Assembly (NCBI GenBank): GCA_049303675.1
Contig: JBAQNJ010000001.1
Span: 472,711 to 536,710, forward strand
DNA length: 64,000 nt
From: Microgenomates group bacterium
GTDB lineage: Bacteria > Patescibacteriota > Microgenomatia > UBA12405
Direction: 5' to 3'
Positions 48,546-62,853 of the stretch are shown here, in pieces. The notes under the pieces were generated by a model, which was not told the DNA's origin, searched no databases, and worked only from the letters and a program-made list of their open reading frames with translations. Position numbers and translations under genes: made by a program. Numbering within the stretch: position 1 is the first letter of the stretch; every line of letters starts with the position of its first letter.

Positions 48546-49028
48546 ATGTCACGCAAAGGTCAAAGTAAACCCAGAGTCGTCGCTCCCGACACCCTCTACA
48601 ACAGTATTACCGTCAGTAAAATAATAAATTACTGCATGATTGGAGGCAAAAAATCTGCCGCTACTACCGAGATTTATCGGGCTATGGAAATTTTGCAAAA
48701 AGAAACCAAGTCAGATGATGTCGTCACTACTCTCGAACAAGCTCTGGATAATATCAAGCCCAAAGTCGAAGTCCGTCCCAAGAGAATTGGTGGCGCTGTT
48801 TATCAGGTCCCCACTCCAGTCCGTGGCAATCGCCAATCGTCCCTCGCTGTCCGCTGGCTGATTACTGCTTCACGGGCTCTACCCAACAAGCAATATCACT
48901 TCTTTGGTCAAAAAGTTGCCGTCGAATTATTGGCAGCTCTCAAAAACGAGGGATCATCTGTCAACAAGCGTGCCGAAGTCGAACGTATGGCCGAGGCCAA
49001 CAAAGCCTTTTCCCATATGAGGTGGTAG
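48546..49028 (+). CDS. rpsG: 30S ribosomal protein S7
   Basis: 160 aa, canonical S7 (...PKVEVRPKRIGGAVYQVPTPVRGNRQSSLAVRWLI...). Confidence 0.9.
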   Translation: MSRKGQSKPRVVAPDTLYNSITVSKIINYCMIGGKKSAATTEIYRAMEILQKETKSDDVVTTLEQALDNIKPKVEVRPKRIGGAVYQVPTPVRGNRQSSLAVRWLITASRALPNKQYHFFGQKVAVELLAALKNEGSSVNKRAEVERMAEANKAFSHMRW

Positions 49029-49063
49029 TGGAAACTATCCTATAGTTGTGATATACTATCACT

Positions 49064-49495
49064 ATGAAATTTTCCCTTGATACGAGTCTTCAAAGAGGTT
49101 ATTACGCGGTTCTAATTCAGACTGCTGAAGCTCTTAATACCAAATTAACAGAACTAAACTCTCGTAAATTTCCTATAGAAAATGTAACTTTAGATCTAAA
49201 TGATGGTTATAAAGTTAGTTTTGAGACTGGAGATAAAAAGCTTGCCAATTCCATTGAAACAGCGATGAAAACAGCAGCAAGTGTCGGCCAATTACTTACC
49301 AGTTACCAATGTGAACAGATATCTGGTCGAACAATCCACCAGAATGACGGCGAAATACGACCTCCTGTCACCAATGAAGAAATTGCTGCCCGTATAAAAA
49401 GTTGTGTTTCAACTACAATCGACAGAGAAATTGGTACTGGGTATACTGCTAGGCTAAAAAGTCAGGCCAGAAATTCACTTAGTAGAATTAAATAA
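49064..49495 (+). CDS. hypothetical protein (143 aa)
   Basis: ORF only; first gene of the insertion between rpsG and fusA. Confidence 0.45.
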   Translation: MKFSLDTSLQRGYYAVLIQTAEALNTKLTELNSRKFPIENVTLDLNDGYKVSFETGDKKLANSIETAMKTAASVGQLLTSYQCEQISGRTIHQNDGEIRPPVTNEEIAARIKSCVSTTIDREIGTGYTARLKSQARNSLSRIK

Positions 49496-49553
49496 TATTT
49501 CTTTGTTTACTTTTTAAGTTTAGTATTTTTCTTGGTTGTGCTAACATTAATCA

Positions 49554-50960
49554 ATGTCATTGTTTAGTAAACCACGCGTCGTTATCTGGCCCAGGGTCAA
49601 TAGTCTTAGTCTTTATTTTGACAGATCCGAAAACAATATTTTTTCCCTCGATGTTTGTTTGTGGAAACCACTTTCCGAGTCCGACACTGCCGCCTTCAAA
49701 GGGCTGATCAAAGAGCAGGGGATCGACACCGCCACGGTTCTCGTCCCCGATGATGTTGTTTTCACCAAATCATTTATCTACGATTCCGAAATCACAGAAA
49801 TCGACAAAAACGAAGTCATTGGCCTAGCCAAGAGTTTTATTACCTTCAAAATTAGCCCCGAATCAATCGACTACAATTTAGTCCAAGCGTCCGGCAAAAC
49901 TATTATTCAGGCTCGTATTTTCGATCAGTCAAAATTCTCAGTTCTCCAAACAAATCTCAGCCTTTTAGGAATCAACTTATCCTTTGAGTCTGTCTCTCAA
50001 TCTATTGCCAATCTCATTTCTCACAATTTTACCGATCAGTATTTTCTCATTTATCCCCACGATACCAACGAATATTTATTGATGCTGGCTGCTGGCAGCT
50101 CAGTTTATCTGACCAATATTATCAAGGGCAAGGATTTAGAAATCCAAAAAATAATCAATTACTCCAAGCTATATTTTCCCGACATTGTTACCAAAATATT
50201 TACCCCCTCGGATATCACCGCCGAGATTATTGCCACTACCAAACTCGACAAATTACCCTATAACCAGTCAGTCCTTGCCACCGATTTCAAAAAAACTTCC
50301 AACCTGCCTCTGCCAGTTACCGGAATCCTTGTCTCAAAACCAGTTCCACCTGCTATAATCAATTCTATAGATACAAATTCACCAACCCCTACTATGGAAA
50401 ACAAAAAAAATATTCTCCCTTTTATTGCCGTCTTTGTCATTACCGCCGCTCTCGCCTCAATTATTATCTATTTTGTCCTCAACAAAAATACTTCTGCCCC
50501 GGAAACACCAGTAGTTACCGATATTACTCCCACAATTGAAGTTCCCACTTCTACCCCAGTTCCTACTTTAGCTGAAATTAGCAAAAAGATAAAACTTCAG
50601 GTCCTCAATGCCACCGAAATCAATGGTCAGGCCGCGGTTCTCAAGGAAAAATTAGTCAATCTAGGATTTACGAGTGTGACAGTTGGTAACAGTAAAGACA
50701 AATTAACTGAGAACAAACTCCAAATCAAAGCCTCAATCACTGGCGCTGATTCATATTTCACCCAACAATTGGCTGGATTCTTTGATGTCGTCCCTACCAT
50801 GGATTTACCCGAGACATCCACCTATGATGCCGTCTTTTCTATTGGCGTCAAATTGGTTGCCCTTACCGCCGAGGCTAGTCCTACCGCCAAGGTGACTACT
50901 GCTGCCACCTCTGCTACTCCCACCGCCAAGGCGAGTGGTACCGCCACCCCAACCGAATAA
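49554..50960 (+). CDS. membrane protein with a PilM-like N-domain, a TM helix and a C-terminal LytR_C (LCP-associated) domain
   Basis: TM helix ILPFIAVFVITAALASIIIYFV. The C-terminal LQVLNATEINGQAAVLKEKLVNLGFTSVTVGNS....ASITGADSYFTQQLAGFF matches the LytR C-terminal domain pattern. Confidence 0.45.
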   Translation: MSLFSKPRVVIWPRVNSLSLYFDRSENNIFSLDVCLWKPLSESDTAAFKGLIKEQGIDTATVLVPDDVVFTKSFIYDSEITEIDKNEVIGLAKSFITFKISPESIDYNLVQASGKTIIQARIFDQSKFSVLQTNLSLLGINLSFESVSQSIANLISHNFTDQYFLIYPHDTNEYLLMLAAGSSVYLTNIIKGKDLEIQKIINYSKLYFPDIVTKIFTPSDITAEIIATTKLDKLPYNQSVLATDFKKTSNLPLPVTGILVSKPVPPAIINSIDTNSPTPTMENKKNILPFIAVFVITAALASIIIYFVLNKNTSAPETPVVTDITPTIEVPTSTPVPTLAEISKKIKLQVLNATEINGQAAVLKEKLVNLGFTSVTVGNSKDKLTENKLQIKASITGADSYFTQQLAGFFDVVPTMDLPETSTYDAVFSIGVKLVALTAEASPTAKVTTAATSATPTAKASGTATPTE

Positions 50961-50964
50961 AATT

Positions 50965-51693
50965 ATGAAAGGTATCGTATTATCAGGAGGCAAAGCCACT
51001 AGACTACGTCCACTTACTTGGGTTATTAGTAAGCAGCTATTGCCGGTTTACGATAAACCCATGGTTTTTTATCCTATTGAAACTTTAGTCAAGGCCAATA
51101 TTAGAGATATTCTAGTTATAGTCTCGCCCGAAAATTCAGGAATGTTTTTAAATTTGCTTGGAGACGGGAGTCAATTTGGAGTCAAGCTCAGCTATACCGT
51201 TCAAAAAGAGCCACGTGGGTTGGCGGACGCATTTATAGTCGGTGAAAATTTTATAGGTAACGATTCTGTAACTATGATTTTAGGTGATAATATTTTCGAA
51301 GAGGATTTCTCAGAACATATAAACAACTTTAAATCTGGTGCTCAAATATATATCAAAGAGTACGATGAACCTCGGAGATTAGGAGTCGTAGAAATCGACA
51401 GTCATGGAAATGTTCTCTCAATTGAAGAAAAGCCTGTAAATCCAAAAAGTAACTTTGTTTCTGTCGGGTTGTACACTTATGACAACCGCGTAGTAGAAAT
51501 TGCCAAAAGTTTGACTCCATCTGCTAGAGGAGAACTTGAGATAAGCGGTGACCCAAGCATAAACAACACCTATTTGCAGATGGGTGAAATAAAGGCAATA
51601 AAATTTAATAGTTATTGGCAGGATGCTGGTACATTTGATTCACTATTGGATGCAGGAAATTATATGTTTGCAAAATCAAAAAATATATTATGA
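50965..51693 (+). CDS. rfbA: glucose-1-phosphate thymidylyltransferase (RmlA/RfbA-like sugar nucleotidyltransferase, short form)
   Basis: MKGIVLSGGKATRLRPLT N-terminal signature of sugar-phosphate nucleotidyltransferases. Start taken at the ATG at 50965, after the upstream stop. Confidence 0.75.
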   Translation: MKGIVLSGGKATRLRPLTWVISKQLLPVYDKPMVFYPIETLVKANIRDILVIVSPENSGMFLNLLGDGSQFGVKLSYTVQKEPRGLADAFIVGENFIGNDSVTMILGDNIFEEDFSEHINNFKSGAQIYIKEYDEPRRLGVVEIDSHGNVLSIEEKPVNPKSNFVSVGLYTYDNRVVEIAKSLTPSARGELEISGDPSINNTYLQMGEIKAIKFNSYWQDAGTFDSLLDAGNYMFAKSKNIL

Positions 51694-52709
51694 AACTACT
51701 AGTCACAGGCGGGTGTGGATTTATTGGCTGTAATTTTATTAAATATTGGTTTGAATCACACCCAAATGATTCTATTGTAAATTTAGATAAACTAACATAT
51801 GCAGCCAATCCCAAGAGTTTATATGAATTTAAAAGTAATCCAAACTATACTTTTATACAGGGTGATATTTTAGACACAAATCTACTAGATCGAATCATGC
51901 CAGGAATCGAACTAATTGTTCATTTTGCCGCCGAATCTCACGTCGACCGCTCTATCGATGATCCTCTATTGTTTGTCAAGTCAAATGTTCTTGGTACCTA
52001 CACCCTCCTCAATGCCGCCAGAAAACACGGCAATATCCGCTTTCACCATATTTCAACCGACGAAGTTTTTGGCTCGATACCTTTTGGCTCAACCTCTGAA
52101 TTCTCCGAAGTTACCCCATATGACCCTTCTTCACCTTATTCATCATCGAAGGCGTCCTCAGATCACTTTGTACGATCTTTCTGTAAGACATTTGGACTTC
52201 CTATTACTATCTCTAACTGTTCTAACAACTATGGACCATATCAACATCCAGAAAAAATGATACCTAGAATGATTACAAATTTGATAGATAATTACAAAGT
52301 TCCTGTTTATGGCGAAGGAAAAAATTTTCGAGACTGGATTTATGTTGTCGATCATTGCCGTGCTATTGAGGCAATTATAAACAAGGGTATTATTGGCGAA
52401 ACTTATTGTGTTGGAGGACTCAAGGAAACTTCCAAAAATATAGATTTGGTTCATCAGGTTATCAAATTAATGGGTAAATCCAACGACCAGCTGGAATTTG
52501 TCACCGATCGTCCTTCACACGACAATTATGCGGTCAGCTGGGACAAAATCAACAAAGAACTAGGATGGGTACCTCAGGAAACTCTTGAATCTGGACTCAA
52601 AAAAACTATTGATTGGTATATCCAAAACGAATCTTGGTGGCGCGCCTCCAAAGCCGACGCCGAAGAGTTTTATGTTAAACTGAACAATTATAAAAATATA
52701 AACAAATAA
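51690..52709 (+). CDS. rfbB: dTDP-glucose 4,6-dehydratase
   Basis: MKLLVTGGCGFIGCNFIKY Rossmann motif, YSSSKASSDHFVRSF (catalytic YxxxK), and HPEKMIPRMI. Confidence 0.88.
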   Translation: MKLLVTGGCGFIGCNFIKYWFESHPNDSIVNLDKLTYAANPKSLYEFKSNPNYTFIQGDILDTNLLDRIMPGIELIVHFAAESHVDRSIDDPLLFVKSNVLGTYTLLNAARKHGNIRFHHISTDEVFGSIPFGSTSEFSEVTPYDPSSPYSSSKASSDHFVRSFCKTFGLPITISNCSNNYGPYQHPEKMIPRMITNLIDNYKVPVYGEGKNFRDWIYVVDHCRAIEAIINKGIIGETYCVGGLKETSKNIDLVHQVIKLMGKSNDQLEFVTDRPSHDNYAVSWDKINKELGWVPQETLESGLKKTIDWYIQNESWWRASKADAEEFYVKLNNYKNINK

Positions 52710-53663
52710 ATGAGCGATAAAATTTTAATCTTCGGTAATGGACAGATTGGTCATTTTTATTTAGATTTCTTTGGCAAACAGGGGATAGAATCCAAAATTG
52801 CAGTTGGTGTCGACATTACTCAAAAAGATCAAATCGAACAAGTAGTCGCCGAATATGCTCCGACTGTAGTTATCAACACTGCCGCCAAGACCAGTCTCGA
52901 ATGGTGCACTCTCAATCGCCTTGAAACTTTCAATATCAATGTTCTTGGTGCCGACAATATCGCTCAGGTTTGTGATGTCAACAAAATTTATTTTATTCAT
53001 TTCTCATCTGGCTGTATTTTTGAGAGTAAAGACGAGAACGATGTCAAGTTAGAGACCACTATCCCCAACCCTGCCGCTTTTTACAGCTGGTCCAAGGTCT
53101 GGGCTGAACAGCTAATTCCTTGCTACAAATCTGCCGATTTCAAATGTCTTATCCTTCGTCCACGTCAGCCAGTTTCTGCCCAGGTTTCCCACAAAAACAT
53201 GTTGATTAAATTGTTAACCTACACTCAGTTTATCGACACTGCTAATGCTGGTACAGTTATCGAGGATTTAATGAATTGGACCAAGATACTAATTGAACAG
53301 CGTTACACTGGAGTTCTCCATGTCGCCAACGAGGGTTGGAGCACTCCCTACAGAATTGCTCAATTGCTCCAGAAACATGTCTTGCCAAGTTTGCCTATCG
53401 AGAAAATTACCAAGGCCAAGCTCGATACCATCACTCCCAACAAGCGTGTCGATACTATTCTCAATATTAATAAATTAAAAGCCATTCCAGGGATCGTCGT
53501 CGAATCTTTTGAGAAGAGACTTGAAGAAATCATTATCGAGTTGGCCACCAATCTCAAAACCGCCGACAAAGATTTAGTCAATGAGACTCTCAATTCCACT
53601 GCCGAGTCGAGTAAGCAGCGTGCCGTCACCAATGATGCATGGAAGACATTACTTCGCCAGTAG
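52710..53663 (+). CDS. rfbD: dTDP-4-dehydrorhamnose reductase-like SDR (RmlD family)
   Basis: ILIFGNGQIGHF Rossmann motif, VINTAAKTSLEWCT, and YSWSKVWAEQ (YxxxK). Confidence 0.65.
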   Translation: MSDKILIFGNGQIGHFYLDFFGKQGIESKIAVGVDITQKDQIEQVVAEYAPTVVINTAAKTSLEWCTLNRLETFNINVLGADNIAQVCDVNKIYFIHFSSGCIFESKDENDVKLETTIPNPAAFYSWSKVWAEQLIPCYKSADFKCLILRPRQPVSAQVSHKNMLIKLLTYTQFIDTANAGTVIEDLMNWTKILIEQRYTGVLHVANEGWSTPYRIAQLLQKHVLPSLPIEKITKAKLDTITPNKRVDTILNINKLKAIPGIVVESFEKRLEEIIIELATNLKTADKDLVNETLNSTAESSKQRAVTNDAWKTLLRQ

Positions 53664-53846
53664 TATCTTTGCTAACTCTTTCCACGACCATACACCGGTA
53701 ATGCCAGCAGGCACTTCATCATTTTTATTGTATTCCCAAGAGAATAAATATAAGTGAGGGATCTTACCAATTAACAGATACTCGCCAACTTATGAATACT
53801 ATCTATAGCTCCGGTAACTGGATTCACGTTCATGGATAACTCTGTT

Positions 53847-54287
53847 TCATACAACTTTTACTAGTTCTTGGTATTGAAATTCAGTCAATTTATAATGATC
53901 TACGGCAGTGTCGCGTTTTGAATTCTCCCTTGTCATTATGTAACCATATTCTGGCAGAGACAAATCAGTCTTAAGTTTTCTTGGATCACTAATCACTCCG
54001 CCAAAGTCAAGGCAAAATCGAGTTATATTTTTCATCTATAGTTTGACAATGTCCAAAGCTTGTAATCTCCCAAATATTGCCAATAAAAACGAATCAGCCA
54101 CCGACCCGAAAAATTCATAAAACTTATCAATTGGGATAATCTCAATCATAAAACTATATCCTTTATCGTCAATAGTTTTACCACCATGTTGGCATAAAAA
54201 TATTGTGTTTAACTCAAAACACGGCTTTTGCAGAATATGCTCTGTTACCCGAGTTAAAGAATTATCAGTCATATACACTGGATTCAT
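53847..54287 (-). pseudogene. cupin-fold sugar-nucleotide isomerase/epimerase-like gene (FdtA/WxcM- or RmlC-like) interrupted by an in-frame TAG
   Basis: Two same-frame ORFs (54287..54036 and 54035..53847) are separated only by TAG at 54036-54038 (...IVKL*MKNITRF...). There is weak similarity to dTDP-sugar 3,4-isomerase cupins (IFLCQHGGKTIDDKG vs VLVCLNGSCRVILDDG). The 3' flank (53664-53846) carries stops in all frames. Confidence 0.3.
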
Positions 54288-54559
54288 TTGATCTTAGTGA
54301 ATTTGATATTATTGGGGTCACCGATTATATGGACGCACTCCTTACTGAAATATCAAGTAATTTAAAAGTTCAAACCGACTCATGTCCAAAGAGACTTAAC
54401 TGTTATCGCGGCAATCGAACCATAAAAGTCTCCAATTCATTTATCGCTAGATTCAAGGAATTTCATTCACAAGACTATCAGATTTACGAAATGGTCAAAA
54501 AACAAAAAGTATATCGAGGTAATAGCTACAGTAGTAAATTAACAGCAAAAATGATATAA
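54203..54559 (+). CDS. hypothetical protein (118 aa; overlaps the antisense pseudogene, so doubtful)
   Basis: ORF only. Confidence 0.25.
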   Translation: MCLTQNTAFAEYALLPELKNYQSYTLDSFDLSEFDIIGVTDYMDALLTEISSNLKVQTDSCPKRLNCYRGNRTIKVSNSFIARFKEFHSQDYQIYEMVKKQKVYRGNSYSSKLTAKMI

Positions 54560-54572
54560 TATAGGCCAAAAT

Positions 54573-56090
54573 ATGGCCCTGGATCAACAACACTTTTATC
54601 CTCTCGTCCCAACAGCTGAACAGTCAGAAAATCTGATTAGATCGGGAGATTGGGAGATGCAAGTTATCCTCCAAGATCTACAAGCCCCTCCCATCGATAG
54701 AGTCACCTCACTCGAGGCTTATAACTCATATATAAAATCCAAAATTACTTTTGATCCAGCTAATGGACCCAAGATAATTGAGGGCTATATGTCAAATGAT
54801 CCTCTGGGTGATGGTAATCAGGGGGTAGTGGTTATGGGAAACAGTCTCAAATTAGTCGATCAAGGTTGGTCGCTGATTGCCTCTACCCAATTAACTGATA
54901 ATTCCCTTATTGTTTCCATTATTGAGCAGCCAAGAGGCACTATCGATATGAAGGGCTGGACCGCCGGAGTTGTTCGCGGATTTAATGAACCGCACATTGA
55001 TGAAGCAGATATGGCCGCACTTGAGGCATTCCAAGAAACTGGATTCCAACACGTTGATAAATTTATCCGTGAGTTGGGCATGCCTACCAATATGATGCCC
55101 ACATTTATGCTATCGCGCCTCCGCGGCGGCGCCAACTCATTCTCTATCGAATTTCCTTCAGAAATATTAGAATTAATTGATGTCCCCAGAAAACGTTGGC
55201 ATATTCGACAGGGAATATTCCAAACTGAAGCACCTCAAGCCGAAGTCGAGAAGGTCACCGCCAGTGTCTTTACCGACATTATGGAAGTTTTATCACAACG
55301 AATTTGGTCGGGTACAGTAGATGGATATAGTCTGATTTCTTCTGCCAGAATTCTAACTAGTAAAAGCAATCTTGATTTTTCTGGATATTGGCAACGTTTG
55401 GTCAGTCCCAAATCCCTTAGTCAAACTCACCACAACTATCCCATCACTCCACTAACACTCGATCGCTATCCAGAATTAACCGGAGGAACTCCAACTTGGC
55501 AAATTACTCTCAACAATCAATTGATTGTTCCTCGTCAGATGTGGTTCCATAATATTCGTACCGGTGCTGAAATTGTCCATGGTATCAAGCCCGAGGCAAA
55601 CATCTATGATGGCTTTGCTATTCATACCGACGAGATGGTAGTTATGGCCACAGTTGAAATTAATGGTCAGTTGTATGTCGGCGGACAATTTGGCTCAGTC
55701 GACCATATTGCCGAGCCAAATATTTTTCATTCACCATCTAGTACCATCAATCTAGAAAATTATTCAGATCAAGAGGCAGAAAAACTATTTTATGAGAATC
55801 TCGGATGCACCAGTGCCGAAAGTGATGGGACAGTATTGGCCCTTGCCCAGTCCGGTGGTCCCATCAATCCCAATTCTGCTCATTTTACGGGAACACTCAA
55901 AACAGTTTTTGTTCAAATAAATCCCGAAAAAGTAATTCAGATAACACCCGACAAATATGTTATCCCCAACTCAAATCCAAATTTTGTTTTTGTACCAATT
56001 AAAGAAGCTATTATGAATACTTCCCATGGCCCCACCGCTCTGGCCGCTGCCGTCCTCTGTGGTTCTGCCAAAATTATTTCTCTAAGATAA
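54573..56090 (+). CDS. hypothetical soluble protein (505 aa) with no recognisable domain
   Basis: Long ORF with good coding composition, no TM helix and no known motif. Confidence 0.5.
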   Translation: MALDQQHFYPLVPTAEQSENLIRSGDWEMQVILQDLQAPPIDRVTSLEAYNSYIKSKITFDPANGPKIIEGYMSNDPLGDGNQGVVVMGNSLKLVDQGWSLIASTQLTDNSLIVSIIEQPRGTIDMKGWTAGVVRGFNEPHIDEADMAALEAFQETGFQHVDKFIRELGMPTNMMPTFMLSRLRGGANSFSIEFPSEILELIDVPRKRWHIRQGIFQTEAPQAEVEKVTASVFTDIMEVLSQRIWSGTVDGYSLISSARILTSKSNLDFSGYWQRLVSPKSLSQTHHNYPITPLTLDRYPELTGGTPTWQITLNNQLIVPRQMWFHNIRTGAEIVHGIKPEANIYDGFAIHTDEMVVMATVEINGQLYVGGQFGSVDHIAEPNIFHSPSSTINLENYSDQEAEKLFYENLGCTSAESDGTVLALAQSGGPINPNSAHFTGTLKTVFVQINPEKVIQITPDKYVIPNSNPNFVFVPIKEAIMNTSHGPTALAAAVLCGSAKIISLR

Positions 56091-56100
56091 CCCTAGCCAT

Positions 56101-56607
56101 CTATTTTTCGGCTTCGATTATTTCTTCCATCGTCATCGTCTTAAACTTAGCATTGGCCGCGTCTTCAAACCTTACGCCCACATCAGCCCCTATTGGTCTA
56201 TTTATCGAATTTACATTCCATGTCACGTTTGGATATCTCGAGACAAATTCTGTCAAACTTATGTTGATTACAAACTCTGCATGTTCTAAGCCATTGTTAT
56301 ATTTGTCGCCTTCAGCCGGAGCCATTACTTCAAAATATTTTATTTTATACTGATGGTACTCCAGTGGTTGATCTAGTTCGTACATGTCCACAGGTCTGTT
56401 CTTAAAAATAACCTGTGTTACTCTTTTTCCAAAAGATCTCATATAAGCAGACACCTCCCTATAATCATTATCAGTCTCAGTTCTACAGGCGATGTGGTCA
56501 ATCTTAAATTGGCTGACATCAATTTTTACGCGACTTAAATTAATAAATACCTTATCTAGAAAATTAACATAGTCGTATTTAAAGTTAATCATAAATTTAT
56601 TATTCAT
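56101..56607 (-). CDS. hypothetical protein, possibly VOC/YecM-like metal-binding fold
   Basis: KIDHIACRTE ... LEHAEFVINI resemble the paired His/Glu metal-ligand blocks of YecM/VOC proteins. Confidence 0.35.
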   Translation of the reverse strand: MNNKFMINFKYDYVNFLDKVFINLSRVKIDVSQFKIDHIACRTETDNDYREVSAYMRSFGKRVTQVIFKNRPVDMYELDQPLEYHQYKIKYFEVMAPAEGDKYNNGLEHAEFVINISLTEFVSRYPNVTWNVNSINRPIGADVGVRFEDAANAKFKTMTMEEIIEAEK

Positions 56608-57845
56608 TAATCAGATGACATGATTCTCGCCACCCTCTCCCCCTCCCTGACCGCAAAATTAGTCCCCCGATCTTCCGGATATATCATCGCAAAATTCGCC
56701 TGATATATTTTGTTTTTTACTAACTCGTAACTGCTAACTCCTAACTTATAACTTGTTGTTACCAAGTGTTGTGCATTTCTAAATTTCCACACCCAACTAT
56801 CCTCGATAAGTTTTTTATTAAATTTGGGAAATATTTTTAGTAAATAATCAAAAAATATTTTTTTAATTTCGGCTTCACTTTTATCCATCAACCCACCCTC
56901 ATTGGGAATATATGTGCCCATGTAATACACCTGTTTGCCACCATAATATTTTTTATCAACCATATTGGTATGTTGAATAAAGCAGAGAATAGGGGAGTCA
57001 ATATCATTTATATTATGCCAATAATATTTACTCAAGCTCTGGGTACTAGTAAACACCACATTTATCGCCCCCAAATATTCCACCTCTTTACTCGGACCAG
57101 TGTACAGTATTTTGTCAAAATCTTTTAATTCTTTCATCTCTATTTTTTTATTTAAAATAATTTTCCCATTTATTTTTTTGGCCAATGCGTCGGCAATTAT
57201 TCTAAATCCCCCCTCAAAATATCCGAGTTTACTCGAATTTCCTCGAGTATGAATCCGCGCCCACAGCCACGCCATACTGATTTCTTTGTATTTATCTCCA
57301 AATTTTCCATGCAATAATGGTTGCCAAATTACTTCATAGGCTCTCCTCCCGCACCACTTTTTCATCCACTCTGTTGCCAACTCATTTTCATATTTATGCC
57401 AGTTATTATCATATTGTAGCCAAATTTTGACCAGTCCTAGTCTAACTTTATCCCCAATTCCCAAAGGTTTGAATTTTAGTAAATCCGTAGCCCCCATAAA
57501 TGGATACATTTTGTGGTCAAAATAAAGTGCTGTTTTCTCATCGTGCCATTTTAATTTATCAATTAGTCCCAATTCTTTGGTCAATTCTATAATATATTTA
57601 TCAGTCGAAAAAATATGATGATAGGCCTTTTCTAGGTTGGTGTTGGCAATTTTAAACCCACCTGCCAGACCTCCAATATCAGCAGATTTTTCAAAAATAG
57701 TTATCTCATGTCCCTTTTGTGACAATCTATATCCAGCCACCAATCCCGTCATGCCGGCACCTATAATCGCTATCTTTAACTTCCCCTCTTTCGTCAAAGA
57801 GGGGGTTGGGGGTGATTTTTTCTTCCCCACAATTGCAATTTTCAT
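56607..57845 (-). CDS. FAD-dependent oxidoreductase, UDP-galactopyranose-mutase (Glf)-like / amine-oxidase-like
   Basis: N-terminal dinucleotide-binding KIAIIGAGMTGLVAGYRL...IFEKSADIGG, HHIFSTDKYIIE (Glf-like HIFHTNDKYIW), and ILYTGP. The first codons MKIAIVGKKK duplicate the KIAIIG motif. Confidence 0.55.
   Translation of the reverse strand: MKIAIVGKKKSPPTPSLTKEGKLKIAIIGAGMTGLVAGYRLSQKGHEITIFEKSADIGGLAGGFKIANTNLEKAYHHIFSTDKYIIELTKELGLIDKLKWHDEKTALYFDHKMYPFMGATDLLKFKPLGIGDKVRLGLVKIWLQYDNNWHKYENELATEWMKKWCGRRAYEVIWQPLLHGKFGDKYKEISMAWLWARIHTRGNSSKLGYFEGGFRIIADALAKKINGKIILNKKIEMKELKDFDKILYTGPSKEVEYLGAINVVFTSTQSLSKYYWHNINDIDSPILCFIQHTNMVDKKYYGGKQVYYMGTYIPNEGGLMDKSEAEIKKIFFDYLLKIFPKFNKKLIEDSWVWKFRNAQHLVTTSYKLGVSSYELVKNKIYQANFAMIYPEDRGTNFAVREGERVARIMSSD
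56721..56755 (+). repeat. tandem heptamer array (TAACTCG TAACTGC TAACTCC TAACTTA TAACTTG) embedded antisense in the flavoprotein CDS
   Basis: Five contiguous TAACTNN units. On the coding strand they are read in frame as ...VTTSYKLGVSSYELVKN... Confidence 0.5.
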
Positions 57846-57865
57846 AGATTATTATATCCTAGCCT

Positions 57866-58111
57866 ATGGATCCCAAAAAACCTAACATCATATCTGCTGA
57901 AAACAAAGAAATTTTAATCAAAGAGTTAGTTGATTATTTTTCCGCCGAGCACGATATTAATGTTGGGATTATTGCTGCTGGTGAGATATTGGACAAAATA
58001 TTAGAAAAAGTTGATAAATCAATCTACAATCAAGCTATCGAAGACGCCCAAAAAATAATCCGTCAGGGCCATGAAAGCATTATTGTCAATGTCGGTGCCT
58101 TATCTAAGTAA
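57866..58111 (+). CDS. hypothetical small protein (81 aa)
   Basis: ORF only. Confidence 0.4.
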   Translation: MDPKKPNIISAENKEILIKELVDYFSAEHDINVGIIAAGEILDKILEKVDKSIYNQAIEDAQKIIRQGHESIIVNVGALSK

Positions 58112-58140
58112 ATTTATATTTCAAGGTATAGAATTAATTT

Positions 58141-60132
58141 ATGGGGGTGTTAACTGGCCTAAAAATAATAGATTTGACCAAAGTATTTAGCGGACCTTTG
58201 ACCACTCGTCATTTTGCTGATTTAGGTGCCAGGGTAATCAAAATAGAACCGGCCTCGGGTGACGATAGCCGTCAGTTCCCTCCACTCATCGGCAACTGGA
58301 GTGGATATTTTGAGGTCCTTAATCGTGGCAAAGAGTCGCTCGTTCTCGATCTGCGACAGTCTAGTGATCTAAATTCGTTTTACAAATTGTGCACCGATGC
58401 CGACGTAGTCGTGGAAAATTTTAGTCCAAATGTCAAAAAACACCTAAAGATAGACTACACATACGTCAAGAAATATAACCCCAAAATAATTTATGCCTCT
58501 ATCAGTGGCATTAGTCAAAACGTAAATCGTAAATACTATGATGTCCTGGCTCAGGCCGAGTCTGGACTAATGTCCTTAAACGGTATTCATGGCGATATGA
58601 AAAACGCCACCTCAATTGTTGATGCTTTTACTGGCGTAAAGTTGGCTTTTGCCATATCCACAGCACTTTATACACGCCAAAAAACTGGTCGCGGCTGTCA
58701 GATAGACGTCTCCATGCTGGGTTCTGCTTTCGACCTTCTCGAGCAAAACTTAATTGCCGCCTCGATTTCTCATCAAAACCCATCCAAAACTGGCAATCAC
58801 GACAACGCCATTGCTCCATTTGGCATTTTTCAGTCTGGGGACAAATCAGTGGTCTTGGCCATAGGTAACGCTGTTCAGTGGCAGGCATTTTCTAAATTTA
58901 TTCTCAAAGTAAATCCCCAATTGAACCTCGAGTTCTTTGCTACCAATCATTTACGTCTTCAAAATTTCTCCCAACTAGAAAAGTTTATTAATGAAGTCTT
59001 TTCTGATTACCCTGCCGCCAAGTTAATCAAAATCTTGCAGAAGCTGGGTATACCCTGTGCTCTAGTAAACACCATGTCAGATGTCTTGGCCGATTCAAAA
59101 AATTATCAGCAGAATTTATTGCTCAAATTAAATCACCCTACAGCGGGTAAAATAGTTGTCCCGACTGGCGGGATTACTTTTTCAAATCAGCCAGTTCTGA
59201 GTTACCTTCCATCTCCCACGCTCGATACTACAATAAAATTTTTACCCTATGACTCTTCACATGAAAACGGGGTAGTTGATCTCCTCAACCTCTGTTTTCC
59301 CAGTAAAAATATTTCCCCAAGTTCATTTGTGTGGAAACACTTTGACAAATTCTTTAATAGCCAGAGCATTGCCTATGTCGCCATTTGCGGGCAGACTATT
59401 TGTTCTTTTGTCTGTTTTACTCCAATTGAAATACAGGCAGCCAATCAGTCAGTACACCACTTCTATTCTTGCGCTGTTCAGGCAACTCATCCTAATTTTC
59501 GCCGCCTAGGTTTGGTCGGTCAACTCACCAAAATGATTGAATCCCAATTGGGGAATGATGTTAAATACTTAGGTTTTTCCAATGAGAGTGGTGTCCAAAT
59601 TGACAAGCACTCTCGTCAAATAAATTATCAAATAGTTGGCCAGTTTGCTCGTCAGTATGTTCCCTGCATTCCTCAGATACAATCAAAAATATTTTTTACC
59701 AAAATCAAGACTTTATCCTCAGATAAGTGGCCGCACCAACATATTCATATTCACAAGTCAGCCGATTATCTCGACTGGCGCTATCTTCGCAATCCCAAAA
59801 ATTCTTATGTCTACTATTCTATAAATAATTCAGATCAGGTAGTTGGCTATCTGACTTGTACTCAATCAAAATATCGGGTCGAGGTGGTTGATATCATTTT
59901 CGATGATATTCAAATTAGGTTAAAAGATATTATGAGAGCCTTTTCAAATTATGCCTTTCATCAGGGAAAATTAATTACTACCTACACCTACCTTCCCAAC
60001 ATCCTCTGGCGTGACGCATTTCCTCTGATATCCTTTACCAAAAGATTAGGAATTTACCTGACCATAAAATCAAAGTCCTTAGAATTTCTCAACCATACCC
60101 GTTGGTTTCTCCAGTCTGGAGACATCCAATAA
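58141..60132 (+). CDS. family III CoA-transferase (CaiB/BaiF-like) fused to a C-terminal GNAT/FemAB-like acyltransferase region
   Basis: N-terminal LKIIDLTKVFSGPLTTRHFADLGARVIKIEP...GDDSR...RGKES..LDL is the CaiB/BaiF signature. The C-terminal ~290 aa contains a GNAT motif A-like HPNFRRLGLVGQL. Confidence 0.55.
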   Translation: MGVLTGLKIIDLTKVFSGPLTTRHFADLGARVIKIEPASGDDSRQFPPLIGNWSGYFEVLNRGKESLVLDLRQSSDLNSFYKLCTDADVVVENFSPNVKKHLKIDYTYVKKYNPKIIYASISGISQNVNRKYYDVLAQAESGLMSLNGIHGDMKNATSIVDAFTGVKLAFAISTALYTRQKTGRGCQIDVSMLGSAFDLLEQNLIAASISHQNPSKTGNHDNAIAPFGIFQSGDKSVVLAIGNAVQWQAFSKFILKVNPQLNLEFFATNHLRLQNFSQLEKFINEVFSDYPAAKLIKILQKLGIPCALVNTMSDVLADSKNYQQNLLLKLNHPTAGKIVVPTGGITFSNQPVLSYLPSPTLDTTIKFLPYDSSHENGVVDLLNLCFPSKNISPSSFVWKHFDKFFNSQSIAYVAICGQTICSFVCFTPIEIQAANQSVHHFYSCAVQATHPNFRRLGLVGQLTKMIESQLGNDVKYLGFSNESGVQIDKHSRQINYQIVGQFARQYVPCIPQIQSKIFFTKIKTLSSDKWPHQHIHIHKSADYLDWRYLRNPKNSYVYYSINNSDQVVGYLTCTQSKYRVEVVDIIFDDIQIRLKDIMRAFSNYAFHQGKLITTYTYLPNILWRDAFPLISFTKRLGIYLTIKSKSLEFLNHTRWFLQSGDIQ

Positions 60133-60197
60133 ATACTTGTCTTATAATATATTTTTGCTATAATAATACCCATTAATACCATTCTATCTATATATTT

Positions 60198-60620
60198 ATG
60201 GCAGTTGACATCGCCCGCGTCTCCGATTTTGGATTATTAACTATTCATGGCGCCACTGTAGATTATGCCCATGATACTCCAAATACGCGGTTTCAGTTTT
60301 TTCAAATTCTCAAACTTATAGAACGTCCTGAGACTATAACTCTAAAATCATTTATTGATACAAATACATTTATTCTAGAAATAGACTCGGGTACAGACAA
60401 GTTTATCGAAAATGCAGTCACAAACTATCCTATTCGGACAGGTGAGTTGTCCCACAAATTATTTATTCGTGATATGCAACCTGATTACATCGTTAGGTTT
60501 AACTCACGCCAAACTCTACCTGTCGTCGAAATTCACTTTACTCCTTTTGATAGTTTTCAGACCCGCAGGATACCCTATCTTTTGGCCAACGAAAATACCA
60601 TCCCCATTCCCCTTCGATAG
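60198..60620 (+). CDS. hypothetical protein (140 aa)
   Basis: ORF only. Confidence 0.4.
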   Translation: MAVDIARVSDFGLLTIHGATVDYAHDTPNTRFQFFQILKLIERPETITLKSFIDTNTFILEIDSGTDKFIENAVTNYPIRTGELSHKLFIRDMQPDYIVRFNSRQTLPVVEIHFTPFDSFQTRRIPYLLANENTIPIPLR

Positions 60621-60655
60621 TTTAGGGTTTTTGTGTTATCATATTTCACGTAAAA

Positions 60656-60687
60656 CCTGCCTGCCGGCAGGCAGGGCAGCATTTTTT
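60656..60687 (+). terminator. intrinsic terminator (perfect GC palindrome plus T-run)
   Basis: cctgcctgcc/ggcaggcagg, a 20-nt perfect palindrome at 60656-60675, followed by gcagcATTTTTT. Confidence 0.6.
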
Positions 60688-60703
60688 ATTATTTATTATT
60701 TAT

Positions 60704-60745
60704 TCATAAATCGTAATTCGTAATTCATAATTCGTAATTAATTTT
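60704..60745 (+). repeat. tandem heptamer array (TCATAAA TCGTAAT TCGTAAT TCATAAT TCGTAAT TAATTTT), ending 2 nt before the fusA ATG
   Basis: Homologous to the array inside the miaB-like gene (37273-37313). Preceded by TTATTTA repeats at 60688-60703. Confidence 0.55.
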
Positions 60746-60747
60746 CT

Positions 60748-62853
60748 ATGGCTGATGCTATTAAACTCTCCAAAAATCGCGATGTTAGCATGGATCATGT
60801 CCGTAACATCGGTATTATTGCTCATATTGATGGTGGTAAGACCACTACTACCGAACGTCTCTTGTTCTACACTGGTAAAATTCACAAAATTGGCTCAGTT
60901 GACGCTGGTACCACTACTACTGATACCATGGTCCAAGAGAGGGAGAGAGGAATTACCATTCAATCCGCCTGTGTCACCACTTTTTGGCACGATTATCGTA
61001 TCAATATAATCGATACTCCGGGTCACGTCGATTTTACTGCCGAGGTCGAGCGCTCACTCCGAGTACTCGATGGCGCTATTATGATTTTCGATGGCAATGC
61101 TGGAGTTCAGGCCCAATCAGAAACTGTCTGGCGCCAAGCTGACAAATATGGCGTACCTCGGATTGCTTTTGTCAATAAAATGGACAAAGTCGGTGCCTCC
61201 TTCCAAGGGACACTCGATTCTATTACGGCCAAGCTCCGTGCGCCAATTATTGCTATGGTCCTGCCAGTGGGCGAGGAGCATGCCCATGTCGGTGTCATCG
61301 ATCTCATGGAAATGAAGATGATTGTCTACGACAAGGATCCAGAAGGTATGGAATTTACCGTAAAACCAGTAACAGAAGATTATATGAAGGCGGCCACTGC
61401 CGCCCGTGCCAAAATGGTCGAACAAATTGCCGGTGAAGATGAACATCTCATGGAGAAATTCCTCAATGATGAGGAAATTTCTATTCCCGAGCTCAAAAAA
61501 GCTCTCCGTCGGGCTACAATCGATCGCAAACTCTTCCCAGTATTCTGTGGTGCCGCTTGGCGCAACAAGGGGATTCATCCCATTTTGGATGCCATTGTTG
61601 ACTATTTACCCTCTCCTACCGATTTACCACCCATTGAAGGTTATGACGTGGTCACTCAAGACAAAATTTATCGCAATCCCGAGAAATCAGCTCCCTTATC
61701 GGCCATGCTCTTCAAGGTCCAATCAGATGCCCATGTCGGTACTTTGTCCTATGTTAGGGTATATTCTGGTACTATCCGCTCTGGTTCAGATGTCTACAAT
61801 GCTACCAAACAGAAAACCGAACGTATTGGTCGTCTGCTTTTAATGCACGCCGACAAACGTGAGGGAATTGAAGAAGGTTATGCTGGAGAAATTATTGCCT
61901 GTATTGGCCTCAAAGAATCAACTACTGGCGATACACTTTGCGACAAATCAGCTCCAATTTCTCTCTCCCCAATTCAGTTCTCCGATCCAGTTATTTCGCT
62001 CTCAATTGAGCCAGAAACTGCCGATGATCAGGAAAAAATGGGCGCCGCCCTCAATCGTCTGGCCATTGAAGACCCTACCTTTAAAGTTAGTTACAATCAC
62101 GAAACTGGTCAAACAATTATCGCTGGTATGGGCGAACTTTACCTCGATATTATCGTCGATCGTCTCCGTCGTGAATTCAATGTCGGTGTCAAAACCGGTG
62201 CTCCCCAAGTCGCTTATCGTGAGACAATCTCAGAAAATGCCGATGGTGAGGGTAAATACATTCATCAATCCGGTGGTCATGGACAATATGGTCATTGTAA
62301 AGTCAAAGTTGAGCCCAAAAATCGCGGTGAAGGTGTTGAGTTTGTCAATGGCATCAAGGGAGGTGTTATTCCCGCCAACTTTATTCCGGCTATTGAAAAG
62401 GGAGTCAAAGAATCACTCCAAAAGGGTATTATCGCCGGTTATCCTTGCACCGATATCAAGGTCACTGTTTACGACGGATCCTACCATGATGTTGATTCAT
62501 CCGAGGCCGCCTTCAAATTAGCTGGTAATTATGCCATCAAAGACGCCTTTACCAAGGCCAGACCTCTAATTCTCGAGCCTATCATGAAGATGGAGGTCGC
62601 CACCCCCTCAGAATTTCAGGGAACTGTTATTGGAGATTTGGCTTCTCGTCGCGGTCAGGTGAGTGGGACTACCGATTCACTCGGTTACACTACTATTACT
62701 GCCCTCATCCCTCTAGAAATGGTCCGAGGTTACGCTACTGTTATTAGATCTCTGACTCAAGGTCGCGGATCTTTTTACATGGAGCCATCCCACTATGATC
62801 CCGTTCCTCGTGATGTCCAAGAAAAATTGACCATCAAACCAGGTAAAGAATAA
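60748..62853 (+). CDS. fusA: elongation factor G
   Basis: NIGIIAHIDGGKTTTTE, DTPGHVDF, NKMD, and all five EF-G domains. 701 aa. Confidence 0.96.
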   Translation: MADAIKLSKNRDVSMDHVRNIGIIAHIDGGKTTTTERLLFYTGKIHKIGSVDAGTTTTDTMVQERERGITIQSACVTTFWHDYRINIIDTPGHVDFTAEVERSLRVLDGAIMIFDGNAGVQAQSETVWRQADKYGVPRIAFVNKMDKVGASFQGTLDSITAKLRAPIIAMVLPVGEEHAHVGVIDLMEMKMIVYDKDPEGMEFTVKPVTEDYMKAATAARAKMVEQIAGEDEHLMEKFLNDEEISIPELKKALRRATIDRKLFPVFCGAAWRNKGIHPILDAIVDYLPSPTDLPPIEGYDVVTQDKIYRNPEKSAPLSAMLFKVQSDAHVGTLSYVRVYSGTIRSGSDVYNATKQKTERIGRLLLMHADKREGIEEGYAGEIIACIGLKESTTGDTLCDKSAPISLSPIQFSDPVISLSIEPETADDQEKMGAALNRLAIEDPTFKVSYNHETGQTIIAGMGELYLDIIVDRLRREFNVGVKTGAPQVAYRETISENADGEGKYIHQSGGHGQYGHCKVKVEPKNRGEGVEFVNGIKGGVIPANFIPAIEKGVKESLQKGIIAGYPCTDIKVTVYDGSYHDVDSSEAAFKLAGNYAIKDAFTKARPLILEPIMKMEVATPSEFQGTVIGDLASRRGQVSGTTDSLGYTTITALIPLEMVRGYATVIRSLTQGRGSFYMEPSHYDPVPRDVQEKLTIKPGKE

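Follow-up and report, generated by a model that had tools for sequence, protein, structure and literature searches.

A family III CoA-transferase joined to a tandem-GNAT protein in Patescibacteria: a candidate two-step acylation module

Can a single bacterial polypeptide both make an acyl-CoA thioester and pass the acyl group on? The question is raised by a gene on a 64,000-nucleotide stretch of DNA from a Microgenomates group bacterium (GenBank assembly GCA_049303675.1, contig JBAQNJ010000001.1, positions 472,711 to 536,710 of the forward strand), which we refer to as the window. An initial annotation, made from the letters alone, described the gene as a fusion of a family III (CaiB/BaiF) CoA-transferase with a GNAT/FemAB-like acyltransferase region and suggested that, in the context of a glycan island, its product could acylate a cell-wall precursor or glycopolymer. 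We find that the fusion is genuine, that the same two proteins are encoded together at every informative related locus, and that they very probably act together as one two-step acylation machine.

Fused and split forms of the gene pair

The gene is a single ATG-to-stop open reading frame (ORF) in the ORF list of the window, with a product of 663 aa. Gene calls on three public contigs, among them JBAQFH010000001.1 (GCA_049287145.1), give the identical product. Full-length fused homologues occur in independent assemblies, one set at 53–65% identity (protein clusters P0001–P0004) and a second at 36–40% (P0019, P0024, P0025, and P0037); P0002 was seen on 6 contigs, and P0004, which is annotated as Candidatus Magasanikbacteria, in two sources. 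The junction of the window protein reads ...PTLDTTIKFLPYD..., where split forms read ...stop/MxFxxY, and the internal start and the overlap of the split genes have been lost in the fused forms. The two-gene relatives, which are the majority, overlap by only 11–23 nt, so that one insertion or deletion could fuse them; however, given the identical product on three contigs, the eight fused clusters at 36–65% identity, and the altered junction, we assign a negligible probability to a missed stop or a frameshift, introduced in sequencing or assembly, having joined two adjacent genes. The reading frame is continuous, and the fusion is not an artefact. With only eight fused clusters besides the window protein among the 5.8 billion entries searched, the architecture is as uncommon as the initial annotation had supposed.

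To place the fusion among its relatives, both halves of the window protein were mapped onto all fetched loci with tblastn and duplicates were removed; L016/17, which represents the more distant W-x4-x-D-x4 subfamily, and L026, both too short to tell, were left out of the count. A CoA_transf_3 gene or domain lies 5′ of the tandem GNAT in all 18 distinct informative loci of the candidate phyla radiation (CPR)/Patescibacteria. Five loci are fused (the window, L019/20, L021, L005/7/22, and L006). The other thirteen are split: the two genes are adjacent in 12, often overlapping, and in one (L014) a VanW-domain gene stands between them. In L001, L002/L003, and L004, a standalone CoA_transf_3 gene is followed by the GNAT gene in a frame that overlaps it by 11–23 nt, an arrangement that suggests translational coupling. 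The window carries the pair in its fused form, a CoA_transf_3 domain followed by a tandem GNAT of ~300 aa ending in W-x4-G-D-x2. Standalone homologues of the C-terminal half (P0121–P0129) are 36–47% identical to it, and the pairing extends to far more distant members of the family, namely P0165 (profile E value 2e-47, L012), P0196 (1e-33, L013), and P0224 (1e-19, L014). The pair is spread over several CPR classes: Microgenomates, Parcubacteria, Magasanikbacteria, and probably a lineage with an alternative genetic code. The organism of the window itself belongs to the CPR/Patescibacteria, since its EF-G is 100% identical to that of a metagenome-assembled genome labeled "Microgenomates group bacterium" and 94% identical to that of Candidatus Shapirobacteria. 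Profile scans, whose reach is confined to the close subfamily, yielded 5 loci from GTDB genomes and 7 from metagenomes.

Neighbor-joining trees of the two halves, built without bootstrap, are congruent. Fused forms fall in three clades (the window protein with P0001–3; P0004 next to the split pair of L009; and P0019/24/25/37 next to the split pairs of L012/L013), which implies that the genes fused or separated on at least two occasions and probably on three. Pairing at all loci, repeated fusion, and congruent trees are, by the Rosetta-stone argument, the reasons for thinking that the two proteins very probably act together. The pairing at 18 of 18 loci lends strong support to the proposal that the acyl-CoA product of one half is the substrate of the other; the coupling itself is what we infer from this pairing.

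Two observations concern the records from which these loci came. Translation of P0224 with table 11 (L014 3458-4396, L015 378-1316) differs from the recorded protein, which suggests that its genome belongs to a lineage with an alternative genetic code, possibly Gracilibacteria or Absconditabacteria. The records of L009 and L011 are labeled "uncultured Gammaproteobacteria"; their GC content is 0.37–0.38, CPR-like genes surround the pair, and the labels are probably wrong.

Features of the two halves

The N-terminal half is a complete family III CoA-transferase domain. Residues 4–362 match Pfam PF02515 (E value 1.9e-93; 314 bits against a curated cut-off of 23.3) over positions 1–363 of the 366 in the profile, which bears out the CaiB/BaiF assignment of the N-terminal ~370 aa in the initial annotation. 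In the Protein Data Bank (PDB), the sequences nearest to it belong to YfdE of E. coli (4hl6) and to human SUGCT (9br6), each with an E value of ~1e-54 and ~32% identity; formyl-CoA transferases, BbsEF, Rv3272, mesaconyl-CoA transferases, and CaiB come next. A Foldseek search with the full-length model again ranked the YfdE and SUGCT structures first. In the alignment, D161 falls on the Asp that is conserved in YfdE (SLADLCGG) and SUGCT (AMTDLATG). The SUGCT counterpart of this residue is Asp212, and the Asp212Ala variant is inactive (PMC10871334). Because D161 and 68 other positions of this half are invariant across 17 fused and split homologues, the CoA-transferase looks catalytically competent.

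The structure of the C-terminal half was predicted with AlphaFold2 from an alignment of fused and standalone homologues. The model (299 aa, residues 365–663) is confident, with a predicted local distance difference test (pLDDT) score of 91.4 and a predicted TM-score (pTM) of 0.87, and comprises two consecutive GNAT-like β-α-β units. The first has the topology β1-α1-α2-β2-β3-β4-α3-β5-α4-β6, i.e., the GNAT fold, and is matched by Acetyltransf_9 at residues 372–466 (E value 5e-7; 30.2 bits against a curated cut-off of 25, or 33.3 bits with the half alone). Residues ~470–663 have no match in Pfam or NCBIfam. Profile searches thus give the boundaries of both domains, and prediction of the C-terminal region returns a tandem GNAT, so that the initial annotation was right about a single polypeptide joining a CoA-transferase to a GNAT region. 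Its description of a Fem-like duplicated fold holds for the duplication, which is seen in the model, but not for the likeness to Fem proteins: the window protein has no match to FemAB (PF02388) or Acetyltransf_6 at E ≤ 1, and the top 50 structural matches include no Fem protein.

Invariant residues of the C-terminal half are concentrated in the first lobe. Among the same 17 homologues they are L381, L382, W398, K399, T449, R454, L462, G478, S480, N481, G484, D488, Y496, and G500. R454 lies within HPNFRRLGLVGQL, the segment that the initial annotation had recognized as resembling motif A (R.G.VG.L); it occupies the motif A position in the model, and its G457 is kept in most homologues. G478, S480, N481, G484, and D488 belong to the G-F-S-N-x-x-G-x-x-x-D block, in which N117 (half-protein numbering) is conserved in at least 90% of 105 diverse family members. 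Invariant residues of the second lobe are few: W546 and R547 at its start and T641 in the last strand.

Comparison of the C-terminal model with the PDB by Foldseek gave at least 300 matches at E ≤ 1e-3, with GNAT enzymes dominant. Eis-type proteins come first (2hv2, 3n7z, 2i00, and 2ozg; E values of ~1e-12 to 1e-13, TM-scores normalized to the query (TMq) of 0.62–0.70), followed by N-myristoyltransferases (NMTs; E value ~1e-9) and then by Eis2, the glucosamine N-acetyltransferase 5kf1, and 3tt2; 5kf1 and 3tt2 are tandem GNATs of ~315 aa. As judged from the model, the GNAT half resembles Eis-like proteins and NMTs rather than FemABX. In Eis, the first (N-terminal) GNAT is active and the second inactive (PMC4964394).

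An exhaustive profile search showed that relatives of the C-terminal half are mostly standalone proteins of 300–315 aa. Counted as representatives at 50% identity, the family has at least 79 members at E ≤ 1e-30, 265 at ≤ 1e-10, and 2354 at ≤ 1e-3. Of 105 members scanned individually against Pfam (E ≤ 0.01), 101 match Acetyltransf_9 in the first lobe, and none matches FemAB, Acetyltransf_6, Acetyltransf_17 (the central domain of Eis), NMT_C, or SCP2. Six relatives give weak, sub-threshold matches to the NMT N-domain (best E value 2.5e-4), whereas the window protein gives none. No Pfam model matches the second lobe in any of the 105 members; family models therefore do not describe this lobe or the tail, and neither has a solved relative.

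The protein ends in a tail of fixed length, in which W655, G660, and D661 are invariant in the 17 homologues. Among 104 diverse representatives, 65 end in W-x4-G-D-x2-COOH and 27, which are more distant, in W-x4-x-D-x4-COOH; the majority of the other 12 have the same tail length with one substitution. In NMT, the C-terminal carboxylate is the catalytic general base, a feature that a review of GNAT enzymes calls unique to NMT (PMC4964394). Since a positioned terminal carboxylate predicts a terminus of invariant length, the tail suggests an NMT-like use of the terminal carboxylate.

In the model of the complete 663-aa protein (mean pLDDT 90.3, pTM 0.62), the halves are each well folded and are separated by a short coil at residues ~348–364. 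No PDB chain spanning both halves was found with Foldseek when the full-length model was used as the query.

Proposed reaction and competing explanations

The reading that we favor, with moderate confidence, is that the CoA-transferase makes a non-acetyl acyl-CoA and that the GNAT half moves its acyl group to an amine with the assistance of the tail carboxylate. In the first step, to which family membership and the conserved Asp161 point, the N-terminal half, presumably an interlocked homodimer, would take CoA from a common thioester, e.g., acetyl- or succinyl-CoA, and put it on a free carboxylic acid via Asp161. Similarity suggests that this acid is most likely a small (di)carboxylate, because YfdE and SUGCT are the nearest characterized relatives. 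In the second step, proposed from the fold and the conservation of motifs, the first GNAT lobe would bind this special acyl-CoA and transfer the acyl group to an amine held in a cleft with the second lobe, which has no CoA motif. The tail probably reaches back into the GNAT site, where its terminal carboxylate would help to deprotonate the amine, as in NMT. Fusion, or translational coupling in the split forms, would hold the two activities stoichiometric and close. The acyl group would not be simply acetyl, because the CoA-SH released by the GNAT is not reusable by the CoA-transferase. Candidate acceptors are amines of proteins, amino sugars or precursors of the cell wall, and small metabolites.

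Several observations weigh against this reading. Motif A reads R454-R-L-G457-L-V459, whereas the canonical form is Q/R-x-x-G-x-G/A; the last position is Val or Ile in the family. Sequence and profile searches with the C-terminal half found no relative among PDB sequences (best E values of 0.2–0.5, which are spurious). Scores of the N-terminal half against the NCBIfam equivalogs are far below the cut-offs, at 219 bits against 522 for NF008511 (the YfdE-type CoA:oxalate family) and 201 bits against 750 for NF052585 (succinate-glutarate), so that the acid substrate is not assignable by family membership. In the full-length model, neither the mutual orientation of the halves nor any interface or channel between them is predicted with confidence. 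The CoA-transferase half, modeled as a monomer, differs from crystal dimers by a root-mean-square deviation of ~21 Å because the interlocking of two chains in family III dimers is beyond the reach of a monomer model; the SUGCT authors likewise report that AlphaFold deviates from the crystal dimers (PMC10871334). The VanW-domain gene of L014 is interposed between the CoA-transferase and the GNAT P0224, and the CoA-transferase of L008 (5231-5998) is without its first ~112 codons; this sole imperfect case among the 18 loci may have arisen by decay of the gene or by faulty assembly. A literature search found nothing relevant on this architecture and no characterized member of the family.

Acetyl supply is the strongest of the competing explanations, and we consider it unlikely. 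It holds that the GNAT is an ordinary N-acetyltransferase, e.g., one that acts on amino sugars or an Eis-like enzyme of detoxification or aminoglycoside modification, and that the CoA-transferase regenerates acetyl-CoA from acetate and another thioester in a host whose CoA metabolism is very limited. The top structural matches are indeed acetyltransferases (the Eis-like proteins and 5kf1), as are the Pfam models that match, and YfdE, one of the closest relatives of the N-terminal half, uses acetyl-CoA. Acetate-activating enzymes are patchy in CPR bacteria (PMC13293708). However, linkage at 18 of 18 loci together with repeated fusion would be unusual for the supply of a general metabolite needed by hundreds of enzymes, and a CoA-transferase itself needs a CoA thioester as donor, which leaves a shortage of activated CoA unsolved.

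The initial annotation placed the gene in a glycan island, and its neighborhood provides the case for a Fem-like or cell-wall acyltransferase acting on a peptidoglycan precursor or on a polymer derived from dTDP-sugars. In the window, rpoB, rpoC, and the genes for S12 and S7 are followed by ~11.7 kb of inserted genes and then by fusA; the str operon is thereby split, with accessory genes at 49029-60747 between rpsG (48546-49028) and fusA (60748-62853). The insertion encodes, in order, a LytR_C protein, RmlA, RmlB, an RmlD-like reductase, a 505-aa protein without a match, a YecM/VOC protein and a PRK07233-type FAD oxidoreductase (both on the minus strand), a DUF2164 protein, the fusion, and a 140-aa protein without a match. 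The rml and LytR_C genes lie 4.5–8.6 kb upstream of the fusion, with the opposite-strand genes between. A similar arrangement surrounds P0002 (L019/L020), which is 63% identical to the window protein: S7, LytR_C, rmlB, rmlC, rmlD, the FAD oxidoreductase (minus strand), the fusion, and fusA, in an insertion of 7.2 kb. Identities between the two loci are 84% for EF-G, 55% for the FAD oxidoreductase, and 41% for the LytR_C protein.

The glycan context holds in this nearest clade, where the conserved FAD oxidoreductase adjoins the fusion, but not at the 16 other loci. There, glycan genes are not present, and the neighbors are unrelated and largely housekeeping: the pair lies between dnaJ and dnaK (L013), beside the gene for trigger factor (L005), beside secA (L011) or ftsH (L010), or near NUDIX and HAD genes. 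In L012, almost nothing separates the gene for S7 from fusA, and the pair comes after fusA, between it and tuf. Other than str-operon genes, which recur in L012, and the genes syntenic in L019/L020, none of the window's neighbors is seen again elsewhere, and no conserved third component was found across the loci. The small hypothetical proteins that flank the pair (140 aa in the window, 148 aa in L005, and 152 aa in L006) were considered as such a component and rejected, as they are mutually non-homologous. The module appears to be self-contained.

The VanW-domain gene inside the pair of L014 and the amino-sugar N-acetyltransferase 5kf1 among the structural matches also speak for a glycan acceptor. 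On the other side stand the absence of FemAB and Acetyltransf_6 from all 105 members and of Fem structures from the top 50, and the lack of a sugar aminotransferase in the window cluster. FemABX enzymes have a duplicated GNAT-like fold, and their donor is an aminoacyl-tRNA, not an acyl-CoA, whereas the window protein appears to keep a CoA-binding motif. We therefore regard the glycan explanation as improbable; it would in any case be a special version of the two-step reaction favored above, with an envelope amine as the acceptor.

A bolder form of the two-step reaction, to which we give a similarly low probability, is that the module is a bacterial miniature of NMT that uses its own C-terminal carboxylate to place an unusual non-acetyl acyl group, e.g., a dicarboxylyl or hydroxyacyl group, on protein amines, supplied by a dedicated CoA-transferase. 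Because the module repeatedly adjoins fusA, tuf, dnaK/dnaJ, trigger factor, and secA, its targets might include the translation or chaperone machinery. If so, it would be a self-contained writer of a new protein or envelope acylation, specific to metabolically minimal CPR bacteria.

A regulatory role seems least probable among the functional alternatives. In the protein acetyltransferase Pat, the GNAT is fused to a large domain that resembles a CoA-binding enzyme and whose role is regulatory and non-catalytic. By analogy with such Pat/YfiQ-like fusions, the GNAT would acylate a lysine of the CoA-transferase (its own or that of its dimer partner), or the CoA-transferase-like half would sense acyl-CoA or oligomerize. 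The Eis and NMT relatives of the GNAT half do act on proteins (PMC4964394). However, invariance of the catalytic Asp and 68 further positions, in fused and split forms alike, speaks for a working enzyme and against a degenerate sensor; no conserved lysine that could be the target was identified, and in most lineages the halves are made as separate proteins.

The wider locus and known systems

The coordinates of the features are collected in Table 1. The rml genes of the window may specify a different 6-deoxy sugar, because the RmlD-like gene scores low and no rmlC (dTDP-sugar isomerase) was found in the cluster; L019 has a canonical rmlB-rmlC-rmlD set. The FAD oxidoreductase is found at the same position in L019/L020 and not in the other loci; PADLOC matched it only to a model of the carotenoid-desaturase type and returned no defense-system match for the fusion or its small neighbors. 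The palindrome upstream of fusA is likely a bidirectional terminator; the promoter and terminator scan of the window as a whole was not above the shuffled background. Small phosphoesterase or hydrolase genes (HAD, NUDIX, His_Phos_1, HD, and isochorismatase) recur beside the pair in neighborhoods that are otherwise unrelated. Their recurrence may reflect chance in small genomes, or it could be a sign that the substrate is phosphorylated or linked to a nucleotide, or that CoA is turned over.

Table 1. Features of the fused gene, of the surrounding window, and of related loci. Coordinates are window positions unless a locus is named.
Feature	Coordinates	Strand	Basis
Whole fused gene, family III CoA-transferase and tandem GNAT (663 aa plus stop)	58141..60132	+	ORF list, fused homologues
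CoA_transf_3 (CaiB/BaiF) domain, residues 4-362	58150..59226	+	Pfam PF02515; closest solved relatives YfdE 4hl6 and SUGCT 9br6
Asp161 codon, predicted catalytic nucleophile, motif IVDAFTG	58621..58623	+	Alignment to YfdE and SUGCT; invariance
GNAT 1, residues ~365-524, predicted acyl-CoA-binding catalytic lobe	59233..59712	+	Pfam Acetyltransf_9, AlphaFold2, invariant residues
Motif A-like HPNFRRLGLVGQL, residues 450-462, β4-α3 junction of GNAT 1	59488..59526	+	Secondary structure: strand 438-449, then helix 458-470
G-F-S-N-x-x-G-x-x-x-D block, residues 478-488, β5/α4 of GNAT 1	59572..59604	+	Conservation
GNAT-like 2, residues ~525-663, predicted acceptor-binding lobe without CoA-binding motif	59713..60129	+	AlphaFold2 β-α-β unit
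Fixed-length tail W655-F-L-Q-S-G660-D661-I-Q663-COOH	60103..60129	+	Invariance, family tail count
693-aa ORF	31437-33518	+	No Pfam match
RmlD-like gene	52710-53663	+	94 bits against 224-bit rmlD cut-off
505-aa ORF	54573-56090	+	No Pfam, NCBIfam, or PADLOC match; no counterpart in L019
FAD-dependent amine-oxidase/phytoene-desaturase-like gene, divergent neighbor of the fusion	56607-57845	-	NCBIfam PRK07233, 377 bits against 252
Perfect 20-nt palindrome CCTGCCTGCCGGCAGGCAGG, then T-rich run, between 140-aa ORF and fusA	60656-60675		Scan called minus strand only
Phosphoesterase/hydrolase neighbor	L001 2727-3278		
Phosphoesterase/hydrolase neighbors	L002 8157-8831, 11510-12130		
Phosphoesterase/hydrolase neighbor	L006 3344-3955		
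Phosphoesterase/hydrolase neighbors	L008 4543-5127, 6901-7428		
Phosphoesterase/hydrolase neighbor	L009 3921-4400		
Phosphoesterase/hydrolase neighbor	L010 4456-4884		

A large share of bacterial diversity belongs to the CPR/Patescibacteria, and most of their non-housekeeping genes are without an assigned function. In organisms that have hardly any CoA-dependent metabolism, the module predicts a dedicated N-acylation with a group other than acetyl, and it offers a well-defined candidate for heterologous biochemistry. Should the tail act as in NMT, catalysis by a C-terminal carboxylate would extend to bacteria.

Each half of the protein can be compared with known systems. YfdE (acetyl-CoA:oxalate) and SUGCT (succinyl-CoA:glutarate) share with the N-terminal half a full-length CoA_transf_3 domain and the catalytic Asp and are its best PDB matches. 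They differ in standing alone, with no attached or obligatorily linked acyltransferase, and the window protein falls below both of the corresponding equivalog cut-offs. The Eis family (M. tuberculosis Eis and the structural-genomics proteins 2hv2, 3n7z, 2i00, and 2ozg) provides the best structural match to the C-terminal half (E value ~1e-13, TMq up to 0.70) and, like it, has an Acetyltransf_9 first GNAT and a second without a CoA motif. However, Eis proteins are ~400 aa long with a third, SCP2-like domain, whereas the window module has 299 aa and two GNAT units, with a TM-score normalized to the target (TMt) of ~0.5. The three-domain organization of Eis is absent from the window protein, just as SCP2 and Acetyltransf_17 are from all 105 members; identity to Eis is ~12%, without a match at the sequence level, and Eis genes are not linked to CoA-transferases. 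NMT is likewise a single-chain tandem GNAT (TMq of 0.55–0.6), and the weak N-domain matches of six of the 105 members add to the likeness. It differs in being eukaryotic, in its greater length (by ~100 aa), and in its specificity for long-chain myristoyl-CoA, which acyl-CoA synthetases produce, and the window protein matches neither the NMT nor the NMT_C profile of Pfam. FemABX enzymes are set apart from the C-terminal half by the absence of their profile and their structures from the searches described above.

A functional parallel to the proposed pathway is found in E. coli, where the CoA-transferase YdiF supplies lactyl-CoA to the GNAT YiaC (PMC9636275). There too, a free acid is converted by a CoA-transferase to a non-acetyl acyl-CoA, from which a GNAT passes the acyl group to an amine. 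YdiF is, however, a family I CoA-transferase, the genes are neither linked nor fused, and YiaC is a single-domain GNAT that carries out lysine lactylation.

An architectural parallel is Pat/YfiQ, in which a large domain resembling a CoA-thioester enzyme and a GNAT share one polypeptide. Its partner domain belongs to the NDP-forming acyl-CoA synthetase superfamily and is regulatory, whereas that of the window protein retains its catalytic residue. Both halves of the window protein are thus from well-known superfamilies, and fusions of an acyl-CoA-enzyme domain to a GNAT are known in kind. What appear to be newly described here are the joining of a family III CoA-transferase to a tandem GNAT, their strict pairing in CPR bacteria, and a tandem-GNAT family with an invariant tail.

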